This document shows, piece by piece, positions 6,666-24,393 of a stretch of 64,000 nucleotides of DNA. The position numbers and the translations under genes were made by a program. The DNA comes from Candidatus Pacearchaeota archaeon. Its GTDB lineage: Archaea; Nanobdellota; Nanobdellia; Pacearchaeales; GW2011-AR1. Below the pieces are notes generated by a model, which made no database searches, was not told the DNA's origin, and worked only from the letters and a program-made list of their open reading frames with translations. The stretch covers positions 159,295 through 223,294 of the forward strand of contig JAVZCO010000001.1 in NCBI GenBank assembly GCA_038874355.1, written 5' to 3'. Position 1 is the stretch's first letter. Each line of letters starts with the position of its first letter.

Positions 6666-7355
6666 ATGCTGAATAAGGAACAAGCACAACAAATAAAAAA
6701 ACAACTTTTCTCGCAAATAGAAAATTTAGATATTAATAAAGAAGATAAAGAGAAACTAAAGAATTATATCCTAAGTTTAGATGAAAAGGGTCTTGAAGAA
6801 TTTCTTATTCAAAATAATATGATAAAAAATGAAAATTTTGAAAAAAAGGGAGAGGAAAAGGAAATAAGAAGTATAAATAAAGAAATAAAAAAAGATTGTG
6901 TTTTTTGTTTAATTGTTGATAATTTAATTCCTTCTTATAAAATTGGGGAAAATAGATTAAGTTTAGCAACTTTAGAAATAAAACCAATTTCAAAAGGGCA
7001 TGTTATAATAATACCAAAAAAACATTTGAATGTGGATAAAATTCCAATTTCTGCTTTTTCTCTTGCAAAAGAAATAGCAAAAAGGATAAAGAAAAGACTA
7101 AAACCAAAAGAGATATCTATAAATACCTCCTCTTTTTCTAATCATGGAATAATAAATATTGTTCCTTTTTACGGAAATGAAACTGGTAAAAGATATGAAG
7201 CAAAAAAAGAAGAATTAGAAGAATTACAGAAAGTATTAACTCAATATAAAAATAAAGAGAAAACAAAAAGAGAAGACAAAAAGGAAGACAAAAAACTAGA
7301 AAAAGAAAAAAAATCAGAAAAAGAAATTTATAAATTTCCTAGAAGAATACCATAA
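6666..7355 (+). CDS. HIT-like domain protein with a degenerate histidine triad
   Basis: CVFCLIV...ISKGHVIIIPKKHL resembles the HIT fold. The position of HxHxH reads NHGIINIVP, which has only one His. K/E-rich N- and C-terminal extensions. Confidence 0.5.
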   Translation: MLNKEQAQQIKKQLFSQIENLDINKEDKEKLKNYILSLDEKGLEEFLIQNNMIKNENFEKKGEEKEIRSINKEIKKDCVFCLIVDNLIPSYKIGENRLSLATLEIKPISKGHVIIIPKKHLNVDKIPISAFSLAKEIAKRIKKRLKPKEISINTSSFSNHGIINIVPFYGNETGKRYEAKKEELEELQKVLTQYKNKEKTKREDKKEDKKLEKEKKSEKEIYKFPRRIP

Positions 7356-8159
7356 TATTAATGTAAAAATAAAAGCAAATAAGAAAGAGGGTGTAAATGG
7401 TATCCCTTGTTTTATTTTTACTTTCTTTTTATGTTTCTTTAATAATTCTATTTCTTCTTTTGTTAAACCTTCCCAATTCGGTTTTATTATTTTTTTATTT
7501 ATACTTATTTCTTCATAAAGCCAATCTCCTTCTGTTAAATTTTTTGTTTCTATTTCCTTTACCATAAGTTCTTCTAGAGATTTTGAATAAATATAAATTA
7601 AAGGAAAAATTATAAATAAAAAAGAAAAAAAAGAAAAGAATATTTCATTTATAAATAAAGAAAAAATGAAGAGAATTAAAGCAAGAATAATTGAAAAAAT
7701 AAAAATAAACTTTCTTTTTTCCAAGTCTTTTTTGAAAAAGAAAAAAAATTTTTTCTTATTGCTATAAATTATAAAAAAACTATAAATAAATCCGTAAATT
7801 CCTCCAAAAAGTAATAAAGACAGAATAAAAATAGAAAATATTTTTATGTTTTCTTTAAAGTATAAAGAAAATGGTAAAATTGTTCCTAGTGCTATAAGCA
7901 ATTTAGCATCACCGCCAGCAAATATTCTTGAATAATAAAAAATATTTCCTAAAACTAAAAATATAAATAAACCAATTACCCCATATAAAAAAAATCTCCA
8001 TTCATCAAAAAATAAAGAATAAAATAACCTATAAGTAAGAGCAAAAATTATTAAAGAAAAATTAATCCAATTTTCTACTTCTCTTTTTTTAATATCTTGT
8101 ATTATAGCCAAAATAATCCAAATGAATGCTAACAATATTAAAAAAAAATTCTTATCCAT
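7314..8159 (-). CDS. A24-family prepilin/preflagellin peptidase (PibD/FlaK-like)
   Basis: Polytopic. First catalytic Asp in IQDIKKREV, second in AGGDAKLLIALG (GxGD-type). GIPFTPSF near the C-terminus. Confidence 0.75.
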   Translation of the reverse strand: MDKNFFLILLAFIWIILAIIQDIKKREVENWINFSLIIFALTYRLFYSLFFDEWRFFLYGVIGLFIFLVLGNIFYYSRIFAGGDAKLLIALGTILPFSLYFKENIKIFSIFILSLLLFGGIYGFIYSFFIIYSNKKKFFFFFKKDLEKRKFIFIFSIILALILFIFSLFINEIFFSFFSFLFIIFPLIYIYSKSLEELMVKEIETKNLTEGDWLYEEISINKKIIKPNWEGLTKEEIELLKKHKKKVKIKQGIPFTPSFLFAFIFTLILWYSSRKFINFFF

Positions 8160-8581
8160 ATTTTATTTAATTTTGAATAATTTATAAATTATTCTGATTA
8201 TCTTTTGTTGCAAAAAAATGTTATTTATTCTTTAAGTTTTCTACTTTTTTCAAATACAATTTAATTAACAAAATAAAAAAATTTATTTTTTAAATAAGTT
8301 TTAAAATTTTTATTTTCCTTGTTCTTTTAATTTTTTATTTGAGAAAAAATATTTTTATTTATAAACGTATATTTCTTAAAGAAGTTATTATGTCTTATTT
8401 TATTAATTAATTTTTTCTCTTGTTCTTTCTTTTCCACCTCTTTTGTAAGGATGTCTCTTTTTTTCTTTGAATTTATCCTTTTTCTTTTTTCTTTTTTCAT
8501 AATAGCCATATTCCATTTTTTAAATTTTTATATAGAAAATTTATAAGAATCCCATTTTTAATTTATTTTTTAATGATCTTT

Positions 8582-9004
8582 TTAAGTAGGACAACTAATT
8601 ATATTTGGGCATTCTGTTAGAAGATTCATTAATTCGTCATCAATATTAACAAGTTGTTTATTTTCTATTTTTTTATTTTTACTCCAAGATTCACAAGTAA
8701 CTATAACAGATTTCATATTTCCTTCTTTTTCCCCTTCTTCTGGGGTTAATATTTTAAAATTTATTTTTCTTTCTTGTTTACACCATCCGTTTATGTTCCC
8801 TAAGGAATTACATGCAATTTCACATCCACTTTTTACATTATTTATGTTTTCGCTATAAAAAATATTTTTAAACCAATCACCTAAATTAAGAGTCCCTTTA
8901 CCTAAATATATTATAACAATGGCAACTATTACTAAAGCAAGAATTAATCCGATCACAATCCAAATCATATTTGCATCTGCTTTCTTTTTTCCTCTTTTTA
9001 TCAT
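8582..9004 (-). CDS. pilin-like secreted Cys-rich protein (class III signal peptide-like)
   Basis: N-terminus MIKRGKKKA/DANMIWIVIGLILALVIVAIVII (basic, K-A-D-A, then about 20 hydrophobic residues). Confidence 0.5.
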   Translation of the reverse strand: MIKRGKKKADANMIWIVIGLILALVIVAIVIIYLGKGTLNLGDWFKNIFYSENINNVKSGCEIACNSLGNINGWCKQERKINFKILTPEEGEKEGNMKSVIVTCESWSKNKKIENKQLVNIDDELMNLLTECPNIISCPT

Positions 9005-9053
9005 AAGATAATAATATTTTTTTTATTTATAAATGTTATGTTTTTATCTTTCA

Positions 9054-9072
9054 AAAAGATTAAATTTATAAA
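9054..9072 (+). promoter_or_regulatory. BRE/TATA-like box
   Basis: AAAAGATTAAATTTATAAA; the TATA centre lies about 25 nt upstream of the ATG at 9094. Confidence 0.45.
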
Positions 9073-9093
9073 TTATTATTAGTTTTTTAAACC

Positions 9094-9939
9094 ATGAATC
9101 AAAAATTAAAAACAACTCTTTTTATTTTAACCTCTTTTATTACTGGTGTATATTTTGGAAATAATTTTTCTATTGATATTAAAATGAAACATAAATCAGA
9201 AGATATAACTAAGAAGGAAGATAGTAAAAGAAATAAATTAATAAATATTATTAAAGAAAATTATAATAATAAAAAAGAAGTTATTAAAACTTTTTCAGAA
9301 GAAAAAAAAGAAGAATTAATCAAAAAGTATGATAAAATTCCTTCTTATTTCCAAGAAGTATTTTTCAGTCCTAATGAAATCCCTAAAGGTTTCTATTTAA
9401 TAGGGTTTGATTACCTTAATCCAAAAGAAGTGGAAACAGAATTTGGAAAGAATACGAAACTTCCTCTTTATATAGAAGATATTATTGAAATAATTTACCA
9501 TAGTGAAAATGAAAATAGAGATATTGGAATCCGCGCATGGAGATATGATAATGATATAAGTCCATCAAAGGGTCTTGACGAGTATGGAGAATTTTTAAGT
9601 GGTGGATCAACTTTTTCTACACTACATTTTTTTAAATATAATAAAGATAAAGATGGGAATAATAAAAATAATATTTCAATAGCACTTCATGATAGAAGAT
9701 TAGAATCTTATTTAGTAAATATGTCTCTTATTTTAAAAGGAATTTCTTCATACCCGCCTGGAGTTGAAGGTGAAGAAGAAAAAAATAGAAGAAAGGATCT
9801 AGTAAAAGAAGTCCAAGAATACATACTTAATATAAAAAATTACTCAAAAAGATTAAATTTATATTTTCCTAACGGGAATAAAGCATATGATGAATTAGAA
9901 AAATATTTAGATGAAATTGGAAAATTAAAATTTGATTAA
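9094..9939 (+). CDS. hypothetical membrane-anchored protein
   Basis: Long ORF with an N-terminal hydrophobic helix and a consensus promoter. No family recognised. Confidence 0.45.
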   Translation: MNQKLKTTLFILTSFITGVYFGNNFSIDIKMKHKSEDITKKEDSKRNKLINIIKENYNNKKEVIKTFSEEKKEELIKKYDKIPSYFQEVFFSPNEIPKGFYLIGFDYLNPKEVETEFGKNTKLPLYIEDIIEIIYHSENENRDIGIRAWRYDNDISPSKGLDEYGEFLSGGSTFSTLHFFKYNKDKDGNNKNNISIALHDRRLESYLVNMSLILKGISSYPPGVEGEEEKNRRKDLVKEVQEYILNIKNYSKRLNLYFPNGNKAYDELEKYLDEIGKLKFD

Positions 9940-10001
9940 AATTCTTTTTTAATTAATTTTAAGGATAAAAAAATGTAAGAATTTTATTAATTGAAATAAG
10001 A

Positions 10002-10589
10002 TTATAATTTTTTTATAATCTTTATATCTTTTATTTTTTCTATTCCGATAGGTTTTATCATTTTTTCTTTATATAAGTTGTATGGTAATGCTCTTATTAT
10101 CTTAGTTTCTTTGCCCCTTTTTTCTATAAACTCTTTTTCAATTTTTTCTATTTCTTTATTTTGTACTTCATAAGATATCAATAAGATCATTCTATAATTT
10201 TTCACTATAACTTCTATTTCTTTATTTTCTTGATTATAACTAACTTCTATTTCGTCATTCCTATATTTATTATTTAATTTATTAACATAATCTATATAAG
10301 AATATTTTTCTAATTGAATTTTAAAATTTTTTTCAAAAATATTTTCAAAATTTTCGTTTTCTTTTTCTTCTAAACTTATATTTTTTATTGTTTCTTCTAC
10401 TAAATCTGAAAGATAAAATTTTATCAAATTTTCTTCTTGTTTTATAAAATTATTTAAATCATAATCCTCTAAAATATTTCTTTCTATTTTATTTTTAGAA
10501 ATGATAAAAATAAATAACATGCTTAAAAATAATGTAATCACGAAAAAAACTATTAAAGTAACATTAATGTCTGCTTTTTTATTTTTCAT
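10002..10589 (-). CDS. pilin-like protein (class III signal peptide-like)
   Basis: MKNKKA/DINVTLIVFFVITLFLSMLFIFII. Overlaps the upstream gene by 11 nt, which suggests an operon. Confidence 0.55.
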   Translation of the reverse strand: MKNKKADINVTLIVFFVITLFLSMLFIFIISKNKIERNILEDYDLNNFIKQEENLIKFYLSDLVEETIKNISLEEKENENFENIFEKNFKIQLEKYSYIDYVNKLNNKYRNDEIEVSYNQENKEIEVIVKNYRMILLISYEVQNKEIEKIEKEFIEKRGKETKIIRALPYNLYKEKMIKPIGIEKIKDIKIIKKL

Positions 10590-11088
10590 TTTTTAAATAA
10601 AAACTTATTTTTATTTTTTCTTTTCCAATAATATATATTTCATTTTTCTTTTCTAAATCAGGATATTCAACTTTAGAATAATAATAACCAGAACCTCTAT
10701 AAGGAAGACTAGATTCGAGGTAAATTTTTTTATTGTCTTCTTCTCCTTTTTTTATTTCAATTTTATAATTATATTCTTTTAAATTTTCTTTTAATGTATT
10801 TTCTATAAACCTCTTTTTATCTTCATCTAATTTATCAGAAGAATAATATTCTTTTATTAAATCTTTAAAAACTAACTCTTCACTTTTATAATTTACTTTT
10901 AAATTTAATATAGAAATTATTTTTTCATAATTTAAAGATTCTGTTTTTAATTTTTCTATATTTTCTTCTACATTCTTTAAAGATAAAGCAATAGTAACAA
11001 TAGTGAAAATAATTATGATAAAAAATATGATGATGAATGCTATAAACCATGTTAAAGTTTCTCCTATTTGTGCTTTTTTATTTTTCAT
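10579..11088 (-). CDS. pilin-like protein (class III signal peptide-like)
   Basis: MKNKKA/QIGETLTWFIAFIIIFFIIIIF. ATGA overlap with the upstream gene. Confidence 0.55.
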   Translation of the reverse strand: MKNKKAQIGETLTWFIAFIIIFFIIIIFTIVTIALSLKNVEENIEKLKTESLNYEKIISILNLKVNYKSEELVFKDLIKEYYSSDKLDEDKKRFIENTLKENLKEYNYKIEIKKGEEDNKKIYLESSLPYRGSGYYYSKVEYPDLEKKNEIYIIGKEKIKISFYLKNEK

Positions 11089-11573
11089 TTTATATCGCTT
11101 AGTAAAATTCTTTTTCCTTTAGCATTAGAAGATGTTAATATTATTAAATTATATAATTTATTTTCTTTGGATACATTTATTTCGCTTTTTACGCAAATTG
11201 GATAATTAATAGCATTTGCTTCTTCTTTTATTTCGCATTGTATAAACATAGATTCTGGTCCTAATATAATTTTTTTATTTTCTTGTACGACTTCGATTTT
11301 AGCACTAAAAAGTTCGCTGTTTAAAGTATTATTATTCAAATTACAAATTTCTAAAATATCTTTTTTTATTTCTTCTTCGCTCTTAGAAAAATTGAAATAA
11401 TTATTTTGCAAACAATGAGAAATTTTTTTATTTAATATTTTACTATCTAAACTCCTATAATCAATTTCTTTATTTGTAAAAATATAAATATTACTTATAA
11501 CTCCAACTATAACAATTATCCATATAAAAAACCACCATATTGTCATTATTTTTTCTATAGCAGTTTTATTCAT
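11085..11573 (-). CDS. hypothetical protein with an N-terminal hydrophobic anchor, possibly a minor pilin
   Basis: MNKTAIEKIMTIWWFFIWIIVIVGVISNIYIF. No clear K-[AG] cleavage motif. Sits in the same operon. Confidence 0.45.
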   Translation of the reverse strand: MNKTAIEKIMTIWWFFIWIIVIVGVISNIYIFTNKEIDYRSLDSKILNKKISHCLQNNYFNFSKSEEEIKKDILEICNLNNNTLNSELFSAKIEVVQENKKIILGPESMFIQCEIKEEANAINYPICVKSEINVSKENKLYNLIILTSSNAKGKRILLSDIK

Positions 11574-11590
11574 TTTATTTTAAATTTGTT

Positions 11591-11998
11591 TTATTTTTTA
11601 TCATAACTTTCTATTTTTAATATAAGATGATTATCTTCAAAGTATGTATTAATCTTAACATTATTAAAAAAATAATATGAATAATATGTTTGTGGATTTA
11701 AAGAAAAATAAACTATTCCTTTTTCATTGTTTATTTTTATTAAATTTTCTTTTTTTAATATACCTTTTTCAATTTCTTTTTCATATTTTTTATATAAATA
11801 ACTTAAATCAAAATAAATTGTTGTATTGGGTTCTGCCGAATTAATTAACAAAGCAATTTCTTTTGCATAATATTGTTCATCTATTAATTTACCATTTGAA
11901 GAATTATAAACAAAAATTAATAACGTGACAAAAATTATCATATTCAAAATTAAAAAGATAATATTTTCTTCTAATAATTGTTGACCTTTTTTATTCAT
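11591..11998 (-). CDS. pilin-like protein (class III signal peptide-like)
   Basis: MNKKG/QQLLEENIIFLILNMIIFVTLLIFV. Confidence 0.5.
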   Translation of the reverse strand: MNKKGQQLLEENIIFLILNMIIFVTLLIFVYNSSNGKLIDEQYYAKEIALLINSAEPNTTIYFDLSYLYKKYEKEIEKGILKKENLIKINNEKGIVYFSLNPQTYYSYYFFNNVKINTYFEDNHLILKIESYDKK

Positions 11999-12315
11999 AG
12001 AGTAATAAAAAATCTATAATTAATAAATATTTCTTAAAAAATCAAAATAAAAAAATTTAATTAATCTATAAAAAGATTCTTTTTTATTTCGAATCGTCTT
12101 GATTTTTATCAATCTTATTTCTCTCCTTATTACTTTGTTATACAGATATAATTTTAAATTTCTCTACTGCTTAAATTCCATAAATTTTTTTATATCCTTT
12201 AAATTGATTTTATTTTTAATTTTTTTTAAACTATTTTTATTAGATCTTCTACCTTCTACTTATTTTTTAAGTGTGCCTCTAATTTTTTTCAAATCTTTAT
12301 TCATAATATAAAAAT

Positions 12316-13524
12316 TTAAGGAATGCTTTCTATATTTCCAGAGCAATAAGTATTTATTGCTTGTGGTTCATATTTTACAACTCTTACAACACTGCAACCA
12401 CTTCTTGCATTTTTTGAAGATGAAGAAACGTCTCCGCAATAACCCATTGATACATGCCTATTATATGCTACATTAACTTGTTGAGCTCCTGCTATTACTC
12501 CTCCTAAAACAAAAGCTATTTTTAAACAATAAGGATTTGTTAAACAAGATTTAGTAAAACTAATTGTATTTCTAGGAGATAAAACAAAAGAACCTCCATA
12601 CATTAATCCTCCTAATTTAGCTAAATTCATTAAAGAATCTGCTACTTTAGGAGCACTAATCTGCATAAAAACAATTGCCAATTGTTCTCCATTCCATTCT
12701 GGTAATTCTCCACCAAAAGAGTATTTAATTTGATCTATTGCTAAAGAGGATTCTTTTTCTGAATTAGTGTCTTCTGATAATTCTGATACATACAAAAAAG
12801 AATTATTTATTATATTGTTTTTAGTTTCATTTGAAACAAATTCTATTTCAACCTGCTCTTCCTCTTCTTTAGTTATCTTTTCTATATCTTTTTTGTAATT
12901 TATATTATTTAAAACATCAAATGATATTTTTGCGAAATCTTCTCCTGCGGAAATATCATTTCCTAACATATAGGTATAATAAGAAACGCTCTTTCCAGGG
13001 ACAGCATGTGTTGCCATGTATTCTTGTACATTCACTTTTTTTATTTCATCCAAACTTATTCTTTCATCTATTGCGATTCTCGAACAAATAATACATGAAG
13101 GATACACCAATCCAAAACCATATCTTGTTGCAATAAACTGAGAAAATAAATCTAATCTTCCTTGCCCCATCATATTCCAGCATTCTAAAATTTCTTGAGA
13201 AATAACTTTTTCAATTCCTTCTTTATCTTTAACAATAACTTTTTCTACTCCTTTTTCTCCAGTAAATTCTTCACAATTACCAAAAACACTATTTGTAATA
13301 CAAACTTTTTTTTCTTTACATTGTAAAGGGGCATAAGATTTGCCAGCATCTAATACAGGAAGGCTAGCAATAGTTCCCCTCATTATAACACTTTGTTTAC
13401 ATGCTTCTCTATCTGTTCTTTGACTTAAGTTCAAATTTATAATAAAGAATAAAAGAATACCAAAAGCTAAGATTAATAAAATTATTGCTACTAATGTAGA
13501 CAAAGTAATTCCTCTTTTATTCAT
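12316..13524 (-). CDS. large pilin-like protein (class III signal peptide-like), Cys-rich
   Basis: MNKRG/ITLSTLVAIILLILAFGILLFFI. 402 aa. Confidence 0.55.
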   Translation of the reverse strand: MNKRGITLSTLVAIILLILAFGILLFFIINLNLSQRTDREACKQSVIMRGTIASLPVLDAGKSYAPLQCKEKKVCITNSVFGNCEEFTGEKGVEKVIVKDKEGIEKVISQEILECWNMMGQGRLDLFSQFIATRYGFGLVYPSCIICSRIAIDERISLDEIKKVNVQEYMATHAVPGKSVSYYTYMLGNDISAGEDFAKISFDVLNNINYKKDIEKITKEEEEQVEIEFVSNETKNNIINNSFLYVSELSEDTNSEKESSLAIDQIKYSFGGELPEWNGEQLAIVFMQISAPKVADSLMNLAKLGGLMYGGSFVLSPRNTISFTKSCLTNPYCLKIAFVLGGVIAGAQQVNVAYNRHVSMGYCGDVSSSSKNARSGCSVVRVVKYEPQAINTYCSGNIESIP

Positions 13525-13716: not shown

Positions 13717-14268
13717 TTATTTTTTATTTATTAATAAATTATTAAAAAATCTTTGAAGTTCTGATGTTGGACCTGTATCACAAACAATAGAAATATGCCC
13801 TTCCTTATTTTTATTTATTGTGCAGGGTGTTGATTGATAAATTGCAATAACATTCTCTTCATAATTTTTATTTTTTATTACTAAGTAGTCATCTACAACT
13901 TTACATACCGCTTTAGATTCGTCTAAATAACCATTTAAAGCATTCCAAGGGTTCTTTACAGCAGAAGAATGTGGAGCCAAACATAAACAATATTTTCCAT
14001 TGCAAATATTTGTTGTATTAAAATAAAAATAATAATCTTTTGGTGCGCTAATAATAAAACTTATTGATTGATTTTTTTCTTTATATACTTTAATCTTCCC
14101 CTCTATAATTTCTAAAGTAGACTTTGCTTGTTGAATTTTTGTATTCTGTATAAACATATTAAAAATTAAAATTGATAAAATAACAAGAAAAACTATACAT
14201 ATAATTGCAATTATTATTTTAAGAGTTTCTTCTGGCAATAATGTAGAACTTGCTTTTTTATTTTTCAT
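13717..14268 (-). CDS. pilin-like protein (class III signal peptide-like), Cys-rich
   Basis: MKNKKA/SSTLLPEETLKIIIAIICIVFLVILSILIF. Confidence 0.5.
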   Translation of the reverse strand: MKNKKASSTLLPEETLKIIIAIICIVFLVILSILIFNMFIQNTKIQQAKSTLEIIEGKIKVYKEKNQSISFIISAPKDYYFYFNTTNICNGKYCLCLAPHSSAVKNPWNALNGYLDESKAVCKVVDDYLVIKNKNYEENVIAIYQSTPCTINKNKEGHISIVCDTGPTSELQRFFNNLLINKK

Positions 14269-14615: not shown

Positions 14616-15956
14616 ATGAATTTTAATAAAAAAATAAATAAATGGATAGCAACTTTGGGATTAGCAACAACATTTTTATTTCCTAATCCTGCTGCTTATC
14701 CTCAACAAAAAAGATATTTGCATTTAGAAAAACCAATTTTAAGAAAAGCAGAAATAAAAGACTCTATTTTTAATAAAGTTAAAGGAACTCTAGAGTTAAA
14801 ATTAGATTATAATCCAGAAAATAAAGAAATTTGTTTTGAAATCTATACTCCTGATTGGAATAAAAAGAAAGAAAATGTTGCTGATTTGGACAAAGAATAC
14901 ATAAATATAAGAGACGATTCTAAATTTTATATGATATGTAAAAGAGAAAATTTCGAATTTGATTATATAACATCAGAAGGTTATTTTATAGAATTAGATA
15001 AGAATAGAAACTCTTTTGGGGAATGGAAAAAATTAATAGATTTCGAAAAAAATCCTGATGCAAAATTAAAAATTCTTATAAGAAAAAAAGCATTATCTAA
15101 TTTCATAAAAGAAACAAAAATTCCTAATTTTATACCTATAATAACAGAAATTTTGGAATATTCTGAACTAAAAAAAGAAGTTGAATTAGAAAAGATAGCA
15201 TATACTATAGGAAAGGATTATGAAGTCAGAGAAATTGAAATAGGAACAGCAGAAGGATTATTTGCTACAAGAAATACTGCTGTAAAGATAAATATAAAAT
15301 TAAGAACAAATCCAGAAACAGAGAAAAAAACTATTTTATTTTATGATATAAAAATGGGCTCTTCAGGAAGTCCAATAGCTTCTTTATCTGCAAATGGAGA
15401 AATTAGTTTTATTGTTCCGGGTGAAAGAGAAAGAAAAGTACAAGAGCAAACACTTGATGATAAAATATTAGCAACTTTGACTGATTATGAAGATAAAGAA
15501 GAATGGCGTAAGTATTTGGGAAGAATTCCATTATCCATAAAAAAATATTTTTTTCAAAAAGAAGATATACCAAATAATTATAGATTAATAAGTTTGTGGT
15601 ATTCTTCTGGACTGGGAATGAAAAGATATTCTGAATTAAAAGAAATTTTTAATAAAGAATTTGATGTGATTATGATTTATGAAGATATAAAAAATAATAA
15701 AAAGGAAATGTCAAAAGAATCTATTTTTATGGTTAGAATGATAAAATATTATAAAGATTTAAAAGAATCAACTTTTTATGAAGATGTTGATATTAGAGAT
15801 GAAATATATGAAAATAAAGAAGATGGAATTGTTATAGAACTTTTAAATAGTTGGGGTAAAGATGTTGAACACATAAAAGTTTCTCCAGAATATTTGAAAA
15901 GATTAAGATTAGAAGAAAATAAAGAGAAATACTCTATAAAGAGAAAATTAGATTAA
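14616..15956 (+). CDS. secreted hypothetical protein
   Basis: Sec-type signal-like N-terminus KWIATLGLATTFLFPNPAAYPQQ. 446 aa. No family recognised. Confidence 0.55.
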   Translation: MNFNKKINKWIATLGLATTFLFPNPAAYPQQKRYLHLEKPILRKAEIKDSIFNKVKGTLELKLDYNPENKEICFEIYTPDWNKKKENVADLDKEYINIRDDSKFYMICKRENFEFDYITSEGYFIELDKNRNSFGEWKKLIDFEKNPDAKLKILIRKKALSNFIKETKIPNFIPIITEILEYSELKKEVELEKIAYTIGKDYEVREIEIGTAEGLFATRNTAVKINIKLRTNPETEKKTILFYDIKMGSSGSPIASLSANGEISFIVPGERERKVQEQTLDDKILATLTDYEDKEEWRKYLGRIPLSIKKYFFQKEDIPNNYRLISLWYSSGLGMKRYSELKEIFNKEFDVIMIYEDIKNNKKEMSKESIFMVRMIKYYKDLKESTFYEDVDIRDEIYENKEDGIVIELLNSWGKDVEHIKVSPEYLKRLRLEENKEKYSIKRKLD

Positions 15957-15961
15957 TAATT

Positions 15962-16558
15962 TTAAGTTATATCATTTTTTTTATTTCTTAAAATTCTATC
16001 ATAGACAGCTTTTGCATAAGATATTCTTTTTTCAGTAGAGCAATAATCAGGATGGCACCTTTCAAATTTATCTTGAAAGGAAATTGTAGCATCTCTAACA
16101 TTATTTTGGTATTTTAAATGATAATAAGCTTCTTTTTCAGTTCCTAGAAGTTCTTTTACTAAAAAGTTTAATTGACATAATAATACTTCCTTCTCTATTT
16201 CATTTGTTCTTTGACCTTCTGGAGTTTTTGTTTTCGGACAATCTTTTAATAATGCATCTTTTCTCTCGTTGTGCCATTGTGCTAATCCAATAGAAGTACA
16301 TTTATTATTTTTACAATCCCCTTCTAAAAAAGGGTCTAAATTTGATTCTTGGATTAAATTTCCTATTATACCCGCTATTTGTTCATCTGTTAAGGTTATA
16401 TTCTTTATATTCTTAAAATATTCATAAATGAGATCTACTTTATTTTCATAGTTAATATTTACACGCGTTGTTTCCACAGGATGCTCTAAAAAGTTTTTTA
16501 TATCGTTTTGTAAACTATATTTTTCTCCTTCTCTTGTTTTTTCTTCATTCTCTCCCAT
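15962..16558 (-). CDS. stand-alone lysozyme-like domain protein (phage-tail-lysozyme / lytic-transglycosylase-like), no signal peptide
   Basis: DEQIAGIIGNLIQESNLDPF...SIGLAQWHNERKDAL...CQLNFLVKEL...ISFQDKFERC...RISYAKAVY. Paralog of the central domain of ORF 16902-18956. Its own TATA-like box lies about 25 nt upstream. Confidence 0.7.
   Translation of the reverse strand: MGENEEKTREGEKYSLQNDIKNFLEHPVETTRVNINYENKVDLIYEYFKNIKNITLTDEQIAGIIGNLIQESNLDPFLEGDCKNNKCTSIGLAQWHNERKDALLKDCPKTKTPEGQRTNEIEKEVLLCQLNFLVKELLGTEKEAYYHLKYQNNVRDATISFQDKFERCHPDYCSTEKRISYAKAVYDRILRNKKNDIT
16197..16388. repeat. 192-nt block identical to 17701-17892
   Basis: Exact identity by eye across the lysozyme-like catalytic core, flanked by strongly diverged sequence. 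Confidence 0.85.
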
Positions 16559-16901: not shown

Positions 16902-18956
16902 TTAAGTTATTTTATAAACAGCTCTTAATTTCTTTATACTTTCGCTACCAAAATTTACAGGTTTTTTATAACCAGAATCATGAATAAATAAAACTTTTTT
17001 TGTTTTTGGATCGTAACCATTCAAGATAACAATATGATAACCGCTATTAGAAACCTCACTTCTAAAAACACCTATATAACCTGATTTTAATATTTCATTA
17101 ATTTGTTCTTTATTGTTTGTATTTATTTCTCCATTTATCAAATAATCATAAATTTTTACCCCTCCATTTTTTAATATCTCTTTTTCTAATAGAGGAACAG
17201 AATCCCTTATCTCTATATTAATTCCAGCTTCTCTTAAAATATTACTCACAAATCTAGCGCAAACAAAATCTTTACAATTCCTTGCTTTATCCTTACAACC
17301 ATATCTTATAGTATCTTTACCAATATAACTATTCGCTATTCTAAGAATATCTCTACTCTTTCCTTCTCCTATATTAGAAGCAAGATAATCGTAAGAAGAG
17401 GGATCAATTTTATAGTTTCTATCCTGAAAAAAAGTGAATAGATTTAATAAAACATTTCTTATTCCACTTATTTCTCTTTCTTTGTGTCTTATTATATTAT
17501 AGAAAGCTTCTGCATATTCTATTCTTTTATTTGTGTTACAAAGTTTCGAATTACATTTTTCATATTCATTTTGGAATAGAATTGTTATATCTCTAACATT
17601 CTTCAATTTTTCCATTCTCTTTAAAACTCTACTTTTATATGGTTCTTTATTTAACTCTTTATTCAAAAAATCAAGTTGACAAAAGATCATTTTTAATTTT
17701 ATTTCATTTGTTCTTTGACCTTCTGGAGTTTTTGTTTTCGGACAATCTTTTAATAATGCATCTTTTCTCTCGTTGTGCCATTGTGCTAATCCAATAGAAG
17801 TACATTTATTATTTTTACAATCCCCTTCTAAAAAAGGGTCTAAATTTGATTCTTGGATTAAATTTCCTATTATACCCGCTATTTGTTCATCTTCATATCC
17901 CAAATCTTTTAAGTAGTAGTAAATAATTAAAGTTTCTTCTTTCAAAACTGTATTTTCTTTAAGTGAAGAAATAAAATTTTTTAAAAAATTTATATAATAT
18001 TCTACTTCACTTATTTCTTTTTCTGTTTCTCCTTCTCTTGTTTTTTCTTCATTCTCTCCCATACAAAATTGGTATTGCCATTTTCTATAAATCATTTTTA
18101 TTTTTTGTGAATATTCATGCCCTATACTCTTTAAAGTTTCTTCTGTTTCTCGATTATGATAATTTTTTCCTGTTTTATATATAGAAAGAATACAAGTGAA
18201 TTTTTCTTCTTCTGTTATTGAATTATAACATTCTTCATATTTTTCATTTTTGTTGTCAAATGCATTCCTTAATTCTTCTCCTAAATTTTTTATTTCTTCT
18301 TCATTCGTATTAAAATTTTTTTCATTGATTATGGAAATTAAAAGTGCTTTAAAAGATTCTTTATTCATAATTCTTGGATATTCTTTAACAATATTTTCTA
18401 CTAAAAACTTTAAAGATTCATTTTCGTAATATTTTTCTATTTCTGAAGGAGATTCTCTTATAATGTATCTATCATCACAAATAAAAGTTATCAATGGTCT
18501 ACATAATTTATTATCTAAAGAAAAATAAGAATTATGTATTCTTCTTAAAATATCTACTTCTGTATAATCGAGTTTATTGTTATAAGATAAATAATAATTA
18601 TCTATTTTTATTTGTTTTTGATTTGAAAGATATCCTACATATAATTCTCTAAGAAACTTTCCACCTGCTTTATAAATTTTATTATCTTTTATATAAAAAT
18701 CTGTTTTTATTTCTTTATTATTATCATAGATATAAATAAAATCTAACTTAATATTTCCAACATAATCCTCTCCAATACAAATTCCTAATTTTGCATATTC
18801 ATCTTTCGTAACATTTATTAAATGATCACTTTCGTTATAAGGTAAATTTTTAAAAAAATCTATTATTTGTGGTCTTGTTAAAAGTATTATAACAAAAACA
18901 ATTACTAAAATTATTAAAACTAAATAAATAGTTTTTTCCATTGATTGCTGAACCAT
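16902..18956 (-). CDS. membrane-anchored two-domain peptidoglycan hydrolase-like protein (lysozyme-like domain plus NlpC/P60- or CHAP-like cysteine peptidase domain)
   Basis: Signal-anchor IYLVLIILVIVFVIILL. Central GIIGNLIQES...GLAQW...R motif set. C-terminal ANSYIGKD...DFVCARFVSNILREAGINI...GYIGVFRS...GYHIVILNGY...FIHDSG (Cys/His pattern). Confidence 0.8.
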   Translation of the reverse strand: MVQQSMEKTIYLVLIILVIVFVIILLTRPQIIDFFKNLPYNESDHLINVTKDEYAKLGICIGEDYVGNIKLDFIYIYDNNKEIKTDFYIKDNKIYKAGGKFLRELYVGYLSNQKQIKIDNYYLSYNNKLDYTEVDILRRIHNSYFSLDNKLCRPLITFICDDRYIIRESPSEIEKYYENESLKFLVENIVKEYPRIMNKESFKALLISIINEKNFNTNEEEIKNLGEELRNAFDNKNEKYEECYNSITEEEKFTCILSIYKTGKNYHNRETEETLKSIGHEYSQKIKMIYRKWQYQFCMGENEEKTREGETEKEISEVEYYINFLKNFISSLKENTVLKEETLIIYYYLKDLGYEDEQIAGIIGNLIQESNLDPFLEGDCKNNKCTSIGLAQWHNERKDALLKDCPKTKTPEGQRTNEIKLKMIFCQLDFLNKELNKEPYKSRVLKRMEKLKNVRDITILFQNEYEKCNSKLCNTNKRIEYAEAFYNIIRHKEREISGIRNVLLNLFTFFQDRNYKIDPSSYDYLASNIGEGKSRDILRIANSYIGKDTIRYGCKDKARNCKDFVCARFVSNILREAGINIEIRDSVPLLEKEILKNGGVKIYDYLINGEINTNNKEQINEILKSGYIGVFRSEVSNSGYHIVILNGYDPKTKKVLFIHDSGYKKPVNFGSESIKKLRAVYKIT
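17701..17892. repeat. 192-nt block identical to 16197-16388
   Basis: See the partner block. Confidence 0.85.
18027..18071. repeat. 45-nt block identical to 16523-16567
   Basis: See the partner block. Confidence 0.85.
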
Positions 18957-18959
18957 TTT

Positions 18960-19118
18960 TTAACCAAATCTAAATAAATTTTTTAAATTTATAACCATCC
19001 CTTTTAGTTTTCCGCTTAATATTCCATAAGCAACAAGTACTAAAAACAAAAATATTAAAATTAAGATTATCTTTCCTAAAAAATCCATCTCTAAATCTGC
19101 TTTTTTTATTTTTTTCAT
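18960..19118 (-). CDS. 52-aa pilin-like mini-protein (start revised to an internal ATG)
   Basis: MKKIKKA/DLEMDFLGKIILILIFLFLVLVAYGIL. The track's longer 73-aa version would overlap the neighbouring small ORF. Lies 3 nt upstream of the hydrolase gene. Confidence 0.45.
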   Translation of the reverse strand: MKKIKKADLEMDFLGKIILILIFLFLVLVAYGILSGKLKGMVINLKNLFRFG

Positions 19119-19240
19119 TTTATAATATTTGAAAATATTTTTTTTATTGCAAAAAAAGCGATCCCAAATAAGATTATCCATAATAATATAATCAATATTT
19201 TTTTTAATCCTTGACTTTCTTCTTCTGCTCTTTTTTTCAT
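19115..19240 (-). CDS. 41-aa single-TM mini-protein (below the ORF-track cutoff)
   Basis: My own translation: MKKRAEEESQGLKKILIILLWIILFGIAFFAIKKIFSNIIK. Its stop overlaps the next ATG (ATGA). A TATA-like box lies about 28 nt upstream. Confidence 0.35.
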   Translation of the reverse strand: MKKRAEEESQGLKKILIILLWIILFGIAFFAIKKIFSNIIK

Positions 19241-19261
19241 TAGATCATTAAATTTTTTAAT

Positions 19262-19275
19262 ATTATAAATTTATC
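19262..19275 (-). promoter_or_regulatory. TATA-like box for the mini-ORF/hydrolase transcription unit
   Basis: The minus strand reads GATAAATTTATAAT, centred about 28 nt upstream of the ATG at 19240. Confidence 0.4.
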
Positions 19276-19357
19276 TTTTTATCTTATTATTTAATAAGAA
19301 AGTTATAAAATAAATTAAATAAACTTAATAAATTAGAAATAATTTTTATAATTTAGA

Positions 19358-21526
19358 TTATCCTAAATTCATCGCTGAAAGTGCAAATGAAGACAATAAT
19401 GATAAAATTAATATCGCCATAAAAGCTATAATAAAATACATTATTATTCCTCTTTTTAAATTCTTTCCAGTTTCATTAACAATTCTTAACTTATCATATC
19501 CATTTTCTATTGTTACTAAAGAATATGACAAAATAAAAGTAATTTCAATAATATATATTCCTATTACTATTTGTAAAAAATAAGGTGGAATCATAGCTTG
19601 TAAATTAAATATACTTAAGATATTTCCAAACCCTCCAATTGCTTCAGAAACTTCTTCGGCTCCTATGCCAGAAATTGAAATATTTAATTTTGTTAATATA
19701 TTTGTTATCATTCCTGTTAGCCCAATAATAATTCCTGCTAATAATGGTGCTAAAAATGTCATATTACTTCTCATGTCACTTGTTATTTCTGCTAATAAAT
19801 CCTTTAATCTTTCTTCTATTTTTTTTACATTTTTTGTATACTCACTTATAGACATTAATGAAGAGGCTGCTATTTTTAATCCTTTTTTTACAGATTCTAT
19901 TAAAATCATCATAGATGTTGCGATTAAAGCTGATGGATAATAAATTATAGCACCCCTTCTTTTATTAAATATGGCTTCTTCTAAATTCATACCTAACTGA
20001 TGCATATTTTGATTTACTATATTAAAAAATCCTTCTGTTGTTTGTCCTTTAACTGATTTAGCAACGTGTGAAAAAGCAATTTCTGCCGGCATTCCATCTC
20101 CTAATCTATTACCTAACTGGAATAAAGAAGAAGCAAATTCATCTTCTAATTTTTTACTTTTCTCTTTTGCAATAATTAAATCTTTTGTTTTTCTATTATA
20201 AGCAAAAGAAAAAAATATCCCTATTGATAAAGGAATAAATAAACTTAAAATTAAAGCGATAATACCAAATGGTCCTGTTTTTGTTTTCCCAACATTTTTA
20301 AAATCAAAAATCTTTAGATCTTCAAATCCAACTAACCTAAAACCAATTTCTCTAAAAGTGTAATCATTTTTTAAACCTAAATTATTAATAAAATTAGTTT
20401 GAAAAATAAATGGTAAAAAACCAATCATTAACAGAGGAAGAATAAGGAAAAAAGAAATTAGAAAAGGTTTTTTATCTATAAATTTTTTATAATCTTTATT
20501 TAATTCTAAAAGTTCTGTTTCTCCATAGCCACCTGGTCTTTTATAAAGAATTTCATTAGACATAAAAAAAACAAAAAAAGGAACTATAACATTAAAAATA
20601 AAAAACACATGATACCATTTTATTATTCCTGCTAACATAGTAGAAGCTAAAGGTAGCAAAGCAATTGCTAATGTAGGAAGTATTATACCTAACATATAAA
20701 TATTTGTTAAAGGACTTCTAATATCTCTACTATACTTCAACATTTTATCATAAATACCATCTAAAACAACTTGTAGAGCTTTTTCTAAAATAGTAATTCT
20801 TCTTGTTTCTTCTATCTCATATAGACTTGATTCAATTAAATGAAAAGCTTCTACAAATTCTATATTATCATCTTTCCAGGTTTCTAAATAAGCTTCTAAA
20901 CTTTCCTTAAGATTAGAATATTTTCCTATTTCAACATCCCAAAAAACTTTTTTTAAATCTAAAGATAAAGGAGGTTGTAAATGTTTAGCTGCGAAAGAAA
21001 TTGCTCTTTCTAAATTACTTGTATGTTTCATATAAGCAATTATGTACAAAATACATGGAACCATTTGAGAAGAAGTTTTTAATCTTCTTTGATTTGCTAA
21101 TCTATTTGGAGTTGTATAAAAATAATAAAACAAAAATATAGAAAAAAGTAAAAAGAAAAATAATAAAATAAATGGAAAGACATCTGTTAATAAAAAAATC
21201 AAAATGCTTAATAAAGTACCGAAAAAAAAAGTTAAAAATAAAGAGACAACAGATAAAGAAGCAACTTGTTCTGGTGTTATGTCTAATCTTGCTTTTTCTA
21301 TTTCTTTTTTTATTTTTTCATAATCTTTTTTTGAAGGTTTAATTTTGACACTATTACCAATTCCTTTACAAAGTTTCTCAAACCAATTTAATTCATAATA
21401 CATCTCTTCTTTAAATTTTTTGTAATCTCTACTAAAATCCTTATAAGGTATAATATCTGATCTTATCTCTTTTTCTATTTTTGCTCCATATTTTTTTAAT
21501 ATATCCTCTACCTTTATTTTTTCCAT
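19358..21526 (-). CDS. polytopic pilus/archaellum platform protein (FlaJ/TadC/PilC-like)
   Basis: About 720 aa with many TM helices arranged in two halves, immediately downstream of the secretion ATPase. Start revised from GTG at 21532 to ATG at 21526, which is preceded by the SD-like AGAGGTGA. Confidence 0.65.
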   Translation of the reverse strand: MEKIKVEDILKKYGAKIEKEIRSDIIPYKDFSRDYKKFKEEMYYELNWFEKLCKGIGNSVKIKPSKKDYEKIKKEIEKARLDITPEQVASLSVVSLFLTFFFGTLLSILIFLLTDVFPFILLFFFLLFSIFLFYYFYTTPNRLANQRRLKTSSQMVPCILYIIAYMKHTSNLERAISFAAKHLQPPLSLDLKKVFWDVEIGKYSNLKESLEAYLETWKDDNIEFVEAFHLIESSLYEIEETRRITILEKALQVVLDGIYDKMLKYSRDIRSPLTNIYMLGIILPTLAIALLPLASTMLAGIIKWYHVFFIFNVIVPFFVFFMSNEILYKRPGGYGETELLELNKDYKKFIDKKPFLISFFLILPLLMIGFLPFIFQTNFINNLGLKNDYTFREIGFRLVGFEDLKIFDFKNVGKTKTGPFGIIALILSLFIPLSIGIFFSFAYNRKTKDLIIAKEKSKKLEDEFASSLFQLGNRLGDGMPAEIAFSHVAKSVKGQTTEGFFNIVNQNMHQLGMNLEEAIFNKRRGAIIYYPSALIATSMMILIESVKKGLKIAASSLMSISEYTKNVKKIEERLKDLLAEITSDMRSNMTFLAPLLAGIIIGLTGMITNILTKLNISISGIGAEEVSEAIGGFGNILSIFNLQAMIPPYFLQIVIGIYIIEITFILSYSLVTIENGYDKLRIVNETGKNLKRGIIMYFIIAFMAILILSLLSSFALSAMNLG

Positions 21527-21554
21527 TTTCACCTCTTTTTTTATTTAATTTTAT

Positions 21555-23837
21555 TTATTTTTTCATTTTTTTAATTTCTTTTTTCATCCATTCTTTAACT
21601 AAAGGTAAGACTCTTTTTGATTCTGGTAATCCTATTTCTTCTTTTATTTTTTCTGAAATTTCATGAAAAATTGTATTACATTTAAAATTAAATTCTGCTT
21701 CTAATAAATCTTGTATAGAAGTTTTTTTATACATATTTAATATTTCTTCTTTTATTTTTGCCCTTAATAAAATATTATCATAAACCGCATCCCAATTTCC
21801 TGCCCATCCCTTAACATTAGCCGCTATACTTTTTATTATTTCTGAATCACCATTTATTAATTCGTCTGTAGCTTGTAATTCGTCTTTATCTGGGTTATAT
21901 TTAAATAAATCTACAAAACCTTTTTCTTCTAACGGATCTTTAATCCAATGTTTTCTAACCTCACTTATTTGTGTTATTCTTCTCCAAGACCTTATTCCAG
22001 AAGGAGATTTAATTAAATTAGCCACAACTATTAAATCCGTTGCTTTAAAACTTGTTACAGGAACTTGTAGATCATTAACTACTCTATCAAAAACTCCATA
22101 AGGAGAAGCTCCATGAATTGTTCCTGCAACTACATTTGCTAAAGCACCAACTCTCATAGCTTCATATAATGCTTTTGCTTCTATGCTTCTTACCTCTCCA
22201 ACTATTAAACAAGAATCTCCTAATCTTAAACTAGTTCTTATTCCTTCATCTGCTGCAACCTCATTACTAGATTGTAATAAAGCTGATCTAACTTTCATTC
22301 TTAAAATATCGTACCCTAATTTTCTTAATGAATCTACAGGTAATTCTAAAGTATCTTCAACAACAATAATTCTGTATTTAGGTACTATTTCAAGCATTAA
22401 ACTACCTAACAAAGAAGTTTTTCCTGCGCTTCTAGTTCCTGCTACAAGTAAAGTTCTTGCCCCATCAATACAAAAACTTAATAATCCGGCTGATAAAGAA
22501 TTTATCATTTTGTTTTTCATAAATAATGTTAAAGTCCATGGTTTGTCTCTATGCCTTCTTATAGAATATGCTAATCCATATGGTGATAAAGGTTGTTGTA
22601 TAACAGCTATTCTAGCTCTAGTTTCTCCTAAAAGTAATTCTGTATCTAATATAGGATTTGCTTCATCTAATGGTCTGCCAGATAGCATTCTAAATTTTGC
22701 TGCCCAGCTATCTGCATCTTCTTGGCTAGGAATTATATTTGTTAAACATTCGTCATATTCTTGATGCCTAACAAAAATATTATTTTGAGATATAGGAGCA
22801 TTTAAAACAATATCTTGCAAATTTTCATCTTGTAAAAGAACTTCTATTAAACCAAAACCTATAGTATGTCTTATTAATATCTTCGCTAATTTATTTAATT
22901 CCAGATAACTTAAATTTATATTTTTAGAATTAGCTAATTCCTGAATTAAATCTTTAGCAATATTAAAAAAAGTTTGTCTTGTTCTTTCTAAATCAATAAA
23001 TTCTTCTGCTTTTGGTTGATGCTCAATTAAAACGTTTCTAGCTAAATTTAAAAGCATTTGATGATCTTCATTAAGAATATATTCTGGAGGTGTTATATGA
23101 TAAATGTATTTTGGTTCGTTTATTTTTTTTAATATTGTAACATGAGCTTTATCTTTTTCTTCTCCTATTTCATATTCATCTATTATTTCTGCATCTTCTG
23201 GAAGTTTTAAGATTAGTCTTGTAAATGTAAAATTTGGTATTATTTCTGGTCTAAAGAATCTTTTATATATCTCCCTATTATTAAAAGAATATTCTTCTAT
23301 ATATTTTTGTGCCTCTTTTATTAAATTTGTTCCTTCTAAAAGAAGAGTTATTTTTTCTAATAATCTTATATAATTCATCAAACAAAATTTACATTGATAT
23401 GTTTTTTCTAAATTATTTCTTTGTTCTGACAGGATTTTTTTAATAAAAATATAAGCTCCTATTGGATCTTGTTTTAATAAATTAATAAAATTATTAACTA
23501 CATCATATCTTTTTCCTAAACATTGCTGACAATTAAGAACTAATCTTCCTGGAGATAAAATCCTTTCTTGTTTTACTAAATGTATATAGATTCTTGCTAT
23601 CTCATTTAATAAGGATATTTGATTAAAATCATAAACATAGTTTCTTTGTTGAACAAAAACTATTCTTGAAATTTTTGGATTTTCTATTAATAAACTTATT
23701 GCTTTTTCCATAGACTCTTTATTTTCAGAAATATTTGGAATAAGAGAAGAACCCATATAGTTTACATAAGCTACATCTATTCCAGTCTCTCTTACAATTT
23801 CATAAGAATATAACGGAGTACCTTTTTTAAATAACAT
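21555..23837 (-). CDS. type II/IV secretion-family ATPase (FlaI/PilB/VirB11-like)
   Basis: Walker A GTRSAGKTS, Asp box VVEDTLEL, Walker B CLIVGEVR, His box AGTIHGASP. Start revised from TTG at 23852 to ATG at 23837, which has a TATA-like box about 25 nt upstream. Confidence 0.9.
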   Translation of the reverse strand: MLFKKGTPLYSYEIVRETGIDVAYVNYMGSSLIPNISENKESMEKAISLLIENPKISRIVFVQQRNYVYDFNQISLLNEIARIYIHLVKQERILSPGRLVLNCQQCLGKRYDVVNNFINLLKQDPIGAYIFIKKILSEQRNNLEKTYQCKFCLMNYIRLLEKITLLLEGTNLIKEAQKYIEEYSFNNREIYKRFFRPEIIPNFTFTRLILKLPEDAEIIDEYEIGEEKDKAHVTILKKINEPKYIYHITPPEYILNEDHQMLLNLARNVLIEHQPKAEEFIDLERTRQTFFNIAKDLIQELANSKNINLSYLELNKLAKILIRHTIGFGLIEVLLQDENLQDIVLNAPISQNNIFVRHQEYDECLTNIIPSQEDADSWAAKFRMLSGRPLDEANPILDTELLLGETRARIAVIQQPLSPYGLAYSIRRHRDKPWTLTLFMKNKMINSLSAGLLSFCIDGARTLLVAGTRSAGKTSLLGSLMLEIVPKYRIIVVEDTLELPVDSLRKLGYDILRMKVRSALLQSSNEVAADEGIRTSLRLGDSCLIVGEVRSIEAKALYEAMRVGALANVVAGTIHGASPYGVFDRVVNDLQVPVTSFKATDLIVVANLIKSPSGIRSWRRITQISEVRKHWIKDPLEEKGFVDLFKYNPDKDELQATDELINGDSEIIKSIAANVKGWAGNWDAVYDNILLRAKIKEEILNMYKKTSIQDLLEAEFNFKCNTIFHEISEKIKEEIGLPESKRVLPLVKEWMKKEIKKMKK

Positions 23838-24068
23838 CTTAATTTTTAACAATTTTTTTATAAAAAAATAAGAAAATTGAGTATTAAATATCTTTCTAAA
23901 TTTATACTTATTAGATAAAATTTTTATATTTAAGACATCTTATATTTAAAAAAATTTTATCATCTTATAAATTGAAATTTATTTTGATTAAATAAAATGA
24001 AAAGAATTTAAAAGATAAATATTTTAAACCCATTTGTATATTATACTTTTATAAAAGGGGATTAAAAA

Positions 24069-24392: not shown

Positions 24393-24393
24393 A

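Follow-up and report, generated by a model that had tools for sequence, protein, structure and literature searches.

What might an archaeon assemble from a prepilin peptidase, a secretion-type ATPase, a polytopic membrane protein, and about ten small proteins that start with a short basic leader and a hydrophobic stretch? The question is raised by positions 7314-23852 of a 64,000-nucleotide (nt) stretch of DNA, here called the window, from Candidatus Pacearchaeota archaeon (assembly GCA_038874355.1, contig JAVZCO010000001.1, positions 159,295-223,294). Three machinery genes lie there on the minus strand, encoding an A24 prepilin peptidase, an ATPase of the T2SSE/FlaI/TadA family, and a putative platform protein. 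The window has a G+C content (GC) of 22.8% and carries archaeal housekeeping genes (PolD DP1/DP2, Orc1/Cdc6, an RPA-like OB-fold protein, and EF-1beta), and the 16.5-kb locus represents ~3% of the 575,629-bp contig that encodes this exact platform protein. A preliminary description of the DNA proposed a type IV pilus-like locus with at least eight class III signal-like proteins. That count was slightly understated, since nine canonical N-termini and one degenerate one are present. As argued below, the locus very probably encodes a type IV filament machine with class III substrates, and the operon is a divergent, largely unannotated variant of the archaeal type IV filaments with Tad-like traits.

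Class III-like N-termini and their conservation

How unusual are the N-termini of these small proteins? All ATGs in the six frames of the whole window were scanned for a net-basic leader ending in K/R-G/A and followed by a hydrophobic 14-mer. Nine open reading frames (ORFs) matched within the locus; all of them are minus-strand ORFs lying from 8582 to 19240. In 60 dinucleotide shuffles, the mean was 0.03 matches per window, and no shuffle had more than 1. Outside the locus, the remaining 53 kb yield one match (38752-39102, KA/KIFL). It overlaps the gene of a TctA transporter and probably encodes an ordinary membrane anchor or membrane protein. Beyond the nine canonical proteins, there is a tenth pilin-like protein with a degenerate leader (11085-11573) and an eleventh without a leader (16902-18956). 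Each has one hydrophobic segment, always N-terminal, and adjacent genes overlap by 4 to 11 nt (10579-10589, 11085-11088, and 19115-19118). The seven N-termini quoted in the preliminary description, which had also remarked on the partly overlapping same-strand ORFs, are all present on the minus strand. They include KKA/DLEM at 18960-19118, a gene whose start falls inside a mechanically called 73-amino-acid (aa) ORF; the neighboring 41-aa gene at 19115-19240 had been missed. Five of the nine N-termini fit the FlaFind-type pattern in the form given there. Four proteins are indeed Cys-rich, with 12, 7, 6, and 4 Cys in the 402-, 183-, 140-, and 162-aa proteins, and the remaining ones have 0.

The surroundings of the locus in other genomes extend this picture. 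Full-length relatives of the ATPase, at 64-71% identity, occur in at least 550 genome stretches of a species-representative genome set, and nearly all of these records are Pacearchaeota, Woesearchaeota, or Nanoarchaeota. In 80 related loci (L001-L080), compared alongside the two closest relatives (L081 and L082), the same order recurs: ATPase, platform, one or two tiny pilin-like genes, a variable gene, the pilin-like orthologs (183-, 402-, 135-, 162-, 169-, 195-, and 140-aa, in that sequence), and then the A24 peptidase. Flanking HIT, EF-1beta, and RPA genes are often common to the relatives' loci as well. The gene cluster is real, lineage-wide, and syntenic in Pacearchaeota and Woesearchaeota, and its ORFs are conserved, as the preliminary reading required. 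In the 32 fully flanked loci, the 10 kb downstream of the ATPase gene hold 235 class III-like N-termini on the operon strand and none antisense, and the 10 kb upstream hold 26 on both strands. The leader consensus across relatives is N-K-K/R-G/A, and K/R-G/A directly precedes the hydrophobic core in 189 of 200 orthologs, with most of the exceptions retaining G at -1. The test of leader conservation is not circular, because the orthologs were defined by BLAST alone and the motif was not used. For the 162-aa protein, the L081 ortholog has a canonical leader, MINNKKG/IEKIMTIWWFFIW. For the 140-, 195-, and 169-aa proteins, BLAST at 1e-4 turns up few orthologs; these proteins evolve fast, and their position and N-terminus identify the relatives' versions.

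Could the small proteins nonetheless be ordinary N-terminally anchored membrane or secreted proteins, with Lys-rich starts that are a by-product of 23% GC and unrelated to the peptidase? AT-rich genomes do favor Lys (AAA) and Ile/Phe/Leu codons, and no known archaeal pilin Pfam family (e.g., Pilin_N or Class_IIIsignal) is matched by the window's pilin-like proteins at E<=0.1. Yet composition alone yields almost no such starts in shuffled DNA, the rest of the window supplies one, G/A at -1 is kept across orthologs of 30-40% identity, and in many species these genes lie strictly together, and in the same orientation, with those for the ATPase, platform, and A24 peptidase. Ordinary anchors are thus a very improbable explanation, and the N-termini are better read as class III signals, as the preliminary description had supposed. 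The features of the locus are collected in Table 1.

Table 1. Features within the locus, with positions in the window
Feature	Coordinates	Strand	Description
A24 aspartic prepilin (class III signal) peptidase, predicted	7314..8159	-	At least 5 transmembrane (TM) segments, without methyltransferase domain
140-aa pilin-like protein	8582..9004	-	MIKRGKKKA/DANMIWIVIG..., 6 Cys; motif in 22/23 orthologs
Plus-strand ORF	9094..9939	+	281 aa, not conserved
195-aa pilin-like protein	10002..10589	-	MKNKKA/DINVTLIVFF...
169-aa pilin-like protein	10579..11088	-	MKNKKA/QIGETLTWF...
162-aa pilin-like protein	11085..11573	-	MNKTA/IEKIMTIWWFFIW (MNKTA/IEKIM...), degenerate leader, 4 Cys; motif in 28/32 orthologs
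135-aa pilin-like protein	11591..11998	-	MNKKG/QQLLEEN...; orthologs in 43 loci, motif in 45/48
402-aa Cys-rich pilin-like protein	12316..13524	-	MNKRG/ITLS...
183-aa pilin-like protein	13717..14268	-	MKNKKA/SSTLLPEETLKIII..., 7 Cys; orthologs in 35 loci, K/R-G/A in 31/31
Plus-strand ORF	14616..15956	+	446 aa, Sec-type signal-like N-terminus; found in L081 and L082
Stand-alone lysozyme	15962..16558	-	198 aa, without TM segment or leader; Phage_lysozyme2 88 bits
Protein B long form	16902..18956	-	684 aa; N-terminal TM helix with DFFKNLP, conserved middle, lysozyme ~344-488, C-terminal Cys/His domain
Tiny pilin A	18960..19118	-	52 aa, MKKIKKA/DLEMDFLGK...NLKNLFRFG; 45 aa mature (predicted)
41-aa class III-like mini-protein	19115..19240	-	MKKRA/EEESQGLKKILIILLW..., also MKKRA/EEES; 47-aa ortholog in same position in L081
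Platform protein, putative	19358..21532	-	724 aa, ~9-13 hydrophobic segments; divergent two-domain T2SSF (PilC/TadC/FlaJ) family member
Secretion/assembly ATPase	21555..23852	-	765-aa ORF from TTG; ~290-aa N-terminal extension

Assembly machinery and its relation to known systems

The ATPase, described earlier as a FlaI/PilB-type enzyme at 21555-23837, matches Pfam T2SSE (PF00437) with 42 bits against a cut-off of 24.9 and has a Walker A motif, GTRSAGKT, at residues 472-479. Its start is probably the ATG at 23837, which matches the MLFKKGT... of relatives. The nearest solved structures are Archaeoglobus fulgidus GspE2 (afGspE, 2oap; 2e-29), Tad CpaF (1e-23), and FlaI (4e-15). A zinc ribbon in the N-terminal region, suggested by two CxxC pairs (108 and 154), was dropped as an idea because only 6-21% of 80 ATPase orthologs keep the pairs. 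The peptidase matches Pfam Peptidase_A24 (PF01478) with 47.2 bits against 26.5, Arc_PepC being a weak match, and keeps D22 and G82-G83-D84 in at least 95% of 22 orthologs, which agrees with its earlier assignment to the A24 family. Its gene is convergent with a HIT-family gene, the 3' ends overlapping by 42 nt (7314-7355), and the same arrangement is seen in relatives, e.g., L081 and L020.

Do these scores point to an archaellum, i.e., a motility locus? FlaI is the top NCBIfam model for the ATPase and FlaK the top one for the peptidase. Both scores fall far under the equivalog cut-offs (FlaI, NF058587, 137 versus 550 bits; FlaK, 46.5 versus 330 bits), and the ATPase is nearer to afGspE and CpaF than to FlaI. 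Nor do the ORFs in 7314-25101 match archaellin, FlaF/G/H/X, or FlaCDE in Pfam or NCBIfam (for 24069-25101, Pfam only), and the roughly ten heterogeneous subunits are unlike archaellins. An archaellum is therefore exceedingly improbable and has largely been refuted already; the ATPase stands apart from that group, as the preliminary reading implied.

What about the platform protein? That it is polytopic held true. The name platform was, in the preliminary description, a guess from topology, and membership in the T2SSF family is reached only through diverse relatives. Its family has 1068 representatives at E<=1e-3, to whose members the window protein is 25-55% identical over the full length. In one-by-one scans of 50 diverse members, T2SSF (PF00482) was matched by 25, the best at 3.2e-10, and two of ten individually scanned members exceed the gathering threshold of 25.2 (P0251 with 32.8 bits and P0240 with 30.4 bits). 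The matches fall at ~140-280 and ~485-618, the two-domain layout of PilC/TadC/FlaJ proteins. By this transitive homology, and without a direct match, the protein would indirectly qualify as a T2SSF-family platform. The listed members of the family are all named 'hypothetical protein' or are nameless, and none has a precomputed Pfam domain. General libraries recognize only the ATPase and the peptidase because the other components are so divergent.

Which known filaments does the operon resemble? With archaeal adhesive type IV pili (Epd of Methanococcus and Aap/Ups of Sulfolobales) it shares a FlaI/TadA-family ATPase with a polytopic platform, an A24 peptidase lacking the methyltransferase domain, the absence of a retraction ATPase, and multiple subunits whose class III signals have K/R at -2 and G/A at -1. 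It differs in that its platform is too divergent for Pfam and NCBIfam, its subunits match no archaeal pilin family, and its 765-aa ATPase has a lineage-specific N-terminal region. It also has a Flp-sized subunit of 43-45 aa, a leaderless pilin-like family, and murein-hydrolase fusions. A census of archaeal systems (Makarova et al. 2016, PMC4858521) did not cover Pacearchaeota and Woesearchaeota, and a preprint by Sivabalasarma and Albers (2026) mentions DPANN only in general terms.

The likeness to bacterial Tad/Flp (type IVc) systems is of another kind. The ATPase is nearly as near to CpaF/TadA as to archaeal GspE, and the peptidase, like TadV, has no methylase domain. There is also a tiny helix-only subunit, whose acidic-aromatic pair ([DE][YF]) shortly after the predicted cleavage site may recall the Flp pilin motif, G/XXXXEY; most relatives have the E-Y pair at +4/+5, and the window copy has D5-F6 at +5/+6. 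The operon further departs from Tad in having one fused, two-domain platform of 724 aa instead of separate TadB and TadC, in lacking secretin and Rcp components, and in missing the TadA equivalog cut-off (TIGR03819, 122 versus 373 bits).

Divergently upstream of the ATPase gene lie four further genes (24069-25101, plus strand, and 25103-26223, minus strand). They encode a 107-aa coiled-coil protein, a 235-aa protein with a helical N-terminal domain, a Q/P-rich linker, and a coiled-coil C terminus, and two small multi-TM proteins. These neighbors are kept at that position in 40-67 of the 80 related loci and may be pilus accessories or merely conserved neighbors.

Pilin-like subunits and the proposed filament

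Tiny pilin A is the most conserved of the pilin-like genes. Its predicted mature length is 43-45 aa in 32 of 33 orthologs (consensus i..eYLPWllIa.avLvI....lk.kG.slID.IKnlF), and the YLPW...IKNLF pattern is near-invariant. Such features make it the candidate for a bulk, Flp-like major subunit. The 402-aa protein is a candidate minor pilin or adhesin. Its homologs number at least 243, all of them lacking known domains, and 10 Cys are invariant. Its AlphaFold2 (AF2) model (mean predicted local distance difference test score [pLDDT] 77.5, predicted template modeling score [pTM] 0.75) has an N-terminal helix at 3-54, an alpha/beta globular domain, and a disordered, variable insert at 196-271. Of the pilin fold that the preliminary description had in mind, the N-terminal helix is thus present in the model; a canonical beta-sandwich was considered and found no support in a Foldseek search of the PDB.

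How might the parts work together? About ten small proteins would be inserted in the membrane through the N-terminal hydrophobic helix behind the short basic leader, and the A24 aspartic peptidase, through D22 and D84, would cut the leader off after G/A. A hexameric T2SSE-family ATPase is predicted to dock on the two-domain T2SSF-like platform to pull the mature subunits from the membrane, and to polymerize them, by way of the N-terminal helices, into a filament outside the cell. The conserved 43-45-aa subunit is the best candidate for the bulk of such a filament, and the larger, variable, often Cys-rich proteins may serve as minor, priming, or tip subunits and adhesins. As for its purpose, the chances that adhesion to a host or surface is the main role are about even; an attachment-dependent lifestyle, proposed in the preliminary description, would be consistent with this.

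Several results weigh against a filament machine of this kind. The platform protein gave no direct T2SSF match, its Pfam and NCBIfam searches being empty. The top match of its profile in the PDB, the cytoplasmic domain of GspF/EpsF, is marginal (E=0.42), and an hhalign comparison of its N- and C-terminal halves, though in register, is weak (probability 2.7%, E=0.0057) and was not used as evidence. Only the 402-aa protein among the pilin-like proteins was modelled with confidence, and against the PDB Foldseek returned nothing better than E=1.6 for that model, which matches no solved pilin. The 25 families most matched by 139 pilin-like proteins of related loci include no archaeal pilin Pfam. 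Finally, the lysozyme-bearing 684-aa protein begins with MVQQSMEK... and has no K/R-G/A leader, so that its incorporation into a filament is uncertain.

Might the locus instead encode a non-filament system, such as a bindosome, or a short pseudopilus like that of type II secretion? The class III proteins would then be processed and exposed at the membrane, or a little above it; in a variant, a short piston would export murein hydrolases. In neither case would a long adhesive pilus be built. Many class III proteins of other archaea are not filament subunits (preprint 10.64898/2026.04.22.720090), the locus has no retraction ATPase, and lysozyme, Amidase_2, and SLT modules are attached to class III-like N-termini (described below). 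A bindosome would sit poorly with the ATPase score against the BasE model (NF053672; 66 bits, cut-off 1000) and with the 139 pilin-like proteins, in which a scan found no substrate-binding protein domains. Both forms are opposed by the tiny helix-only subunit of 43-45 aa, which is typical of a polymerizing Flp-like pilin. Taken jointly, they are unlikely, and a type IV filament machine is the reading carried forward here.

A 48-nt repeat touches two of the subunit genes. Its copies (14261-14308 and 19233-19280, 77% identical) precede, on the minus strand, the two ATGAAAAA starts of the 183-aa and 41-aa genes, and a TTTATAAT box lies ~30 nt upstream of each. An insertion scar was considered; similar 5' regions, with a TTTATAAT box before ATGAAAAA starts, are more likely. 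The two sites may be archaeal promoters within the locus.

Murein hydrolases in a pilin-like operon

In the window, the distance from platform to peptidase is 11.2 kb, versus 3.9-7.0 kb in relatives. The extra length is due to five genes absent from L001-L080, namely, two lysozyme genes (16902-18956 and 15962-16558) and three plus-strand ORFs (16593-16895, 14616-15956, and 9094-9939), all of them non-pilus insertions. Are the lysozymes, then, simply passengers? The 684-aa protein matches Phage_lysozyme2 with 94 bits; its lysozyme domain aligns with phi29 gp13 (PDB 3csr; E=0.033, ES motif aligned) and with the lysozyme domains of phage tape-measure proteins. At its N terminus, however, the TM helix and DFFKNLP match a leaderless 42-56-aa protein that occupies the same slot in most relatives, and residues 8-260 align with class III-bearing long forms (L004, 7e-8; L006, 3e-7; L002, 8e-6). 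By these alignments, it is a member of an operon family, here called protein B, and not a foreign gene dropped in. The closest relatives, L081 and L082, carry lysozyme plus Amidase_2, or lysozyme alone, in that slot. The 198-aa lysozyme gene shares direct repeats of 237 nt (92%) and 49 nt (98%), 1504 nt apart, with the 684-aa gene and begins exactly at the internal 'MGENEEKTREGE' of the latter; judged from these repeats, it is a recent partial duplicate of the lysozyme module. Two attempts on the 684-aa protein were set aside. Its AF2 model, built from 4 sequences, reached a pLDDT of 52 and gave meaningless Foldseek matches. An NlpC/P60-like identity for the C-terminal Cys/His domain (~520-684) was a guess from sub-threshold papain-clan matches (Peptidase_C39_2, E=0.21; Guanylate_cyc_2, E=0.13), and a PDB sequence search with this domain found no match.

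Murein hydrolases are also fused to pilin-like N-termini elsewhere in the lineage, with Amidase_2 and SLT scores above the Pfam gathering thresholds. Amidase_2 is found on leader-bearing proteins of the 162-aa family (L020:18096-19316, L047:17387-18640, L071:17270-18505, and L034:8159-9417) and on a 169-like leader-bearing protein (L021:17563-18795). SLT is found on 195-like leader-bearing proteins with the same type of N-terminus (L060:18485-19300 and L062:18799-19599) and on leader-bearing members of the 162-aa family (L043:11813-12940 and L005:19014-20117), a family that in relatives often bears one of the two domains. Among the informative related loci, 8 of 27 have hydrolase fusions to pilin-like N-termini, as does the clade to which the window belongs. 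That the fusions are spread over four pilin-like families across Pacearchaeota species implies repeated, independent events. In L075 (12216-12950), a protein B long form carries a TPM-phosphatase domain (90 bits) in place of a hydrolase, so the slot accepts different C-terminal modules.

Why would an archaeon make such enzymes? To our knowledge, archaea have no murein of their own, and the hydrolases must therefore act on the walls of another, bacterial, organism. The fusions hint at a filament directed against bacterial hosts: through the leaderless lysozyme-bearing protein and the relatives' fusion proteins, the filament or its base may present murein hydrolases to bacterial walls. Machine-associated murein hydrolases have precedents in VirB1/CwlT of conjugation systems and BfpH of bundle-forming pili, and the phi29 tail lysozyme gp13 is a further parallel: its lysozyme domain can be aligned, and a gene for a wall-cutting enzyme lies within the operon of a machine that spans the envelope. 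Here, the producer is an archaeon and the target must be another organism's wall. A second parallel is offered by the modular pilins PilB and PilC of Streptococcus sanguinis, which join a pilin N-terminal module to a C-terminal functional module that is presumably presented at the tip (Raynaud et al. 2021, PMC8179133; the word 'hydrolase' is absent from the main text). Modules are likewise swapped among the relatives studied here (lysozyme with the Cys/His domain, lysozyme with Amidase_2, or lysozyme alone), and canonical leaders are joined to Amidase_2 or SLT. The differences are that this operon is archaeal, that its modules are murein hydrolases and not adhesion domains, and that the window's 684-aa carrier lacks the basic leader, though its N-terminal region is homologous to leader-bearing proteins. 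Filament-associated breaching of bacterial walls, in which modular subunits would bring lysozyme, amidase, or lytic transglycosylase to the tip or base, is a tentative proposal, and a doubtful one.

Of the plus-strand ORFs, the 446-aa one is an insertion common only to the closest relatives and gave no match in Pfam and PHROG searches. Kinship between it and the 281-aa ORF was considered and set aside, the similarity being marginal (E=0.001 across 46 aa). Secreted or lipoprotein-like genes on the opposite strand recur inside the operon at varying positions (L003, L007, L011, L020, L030, L033, and L043); their N-termini resemble signal peptides or lipoboxes, and they contain no known domains. 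Farther afield, Rfam reports a 106-nt tRNA at 2771-2876 on the plus strand (52 bits) that ARAGORN does not report and that is probably an intron-containing archaeal tRNA. The genes for the large and small PolD subunits and Orc1/Cdc6 adjoin one another (40665-46992, minus strand), and the 850-bp non-coding gap beside Orc1/Cdc6 (46993-47843) is a candidate replication origin.

Why has such an operon gone unnoticed? Its platform and all its subunits are labelled 'hypothetical,' which is why annotation overlooks it. One groundwater study reported type IV pilus components to be 'missing in DPANN genomes' and took pili as a mark of candidate phyla radiation (CPR) nano-cells (10.1101/2020.05.14.094862). 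The complete operon is present in three groundwater metagenome-assembled genomes, 'NC_groundwater_...Ag' (L005, L018, and L031), apparently from the same aquifer. Murein hydrolases, including giant lytic-transglycosylase proteins, have already been reported in Woesearchaeota and Pacearchaeota (PMC8204110 and PMC9723730), and a literature search found no report tying such enzymes to pilin-type N-termini or to the operon. What is new here is the conserved tiny subunit, the leaderless family with its 684-aa lysozyme member, and the recurrent hydrolase fusions to four pilin-like families.

Which hosts do Pacearchaeota and Woesearchaeota use, and how do they attach to them? These archaea are ultra-small, abundant, and still uncultivated. 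Recognition of the operon gives this lineage a concrete, testable, putative attachment machine and a candidate major subunit, and the recurrent fusions are independent genomic evidence for bacterial targets that complements the earlier hydrolase reports (PMC8204110 and PMC9723730). If wall breaching does take place, local digestion of the murein of hosts or prey would serve attachment, penetration, or the scavenging of nutrients and DNA, and the partners of these DPANN lineages would be bacteria, not archaea. In that case, 'piliated ultra-small cells' seen by cryo-electron microscopy could no longer be assumed to be CPR bacteria.

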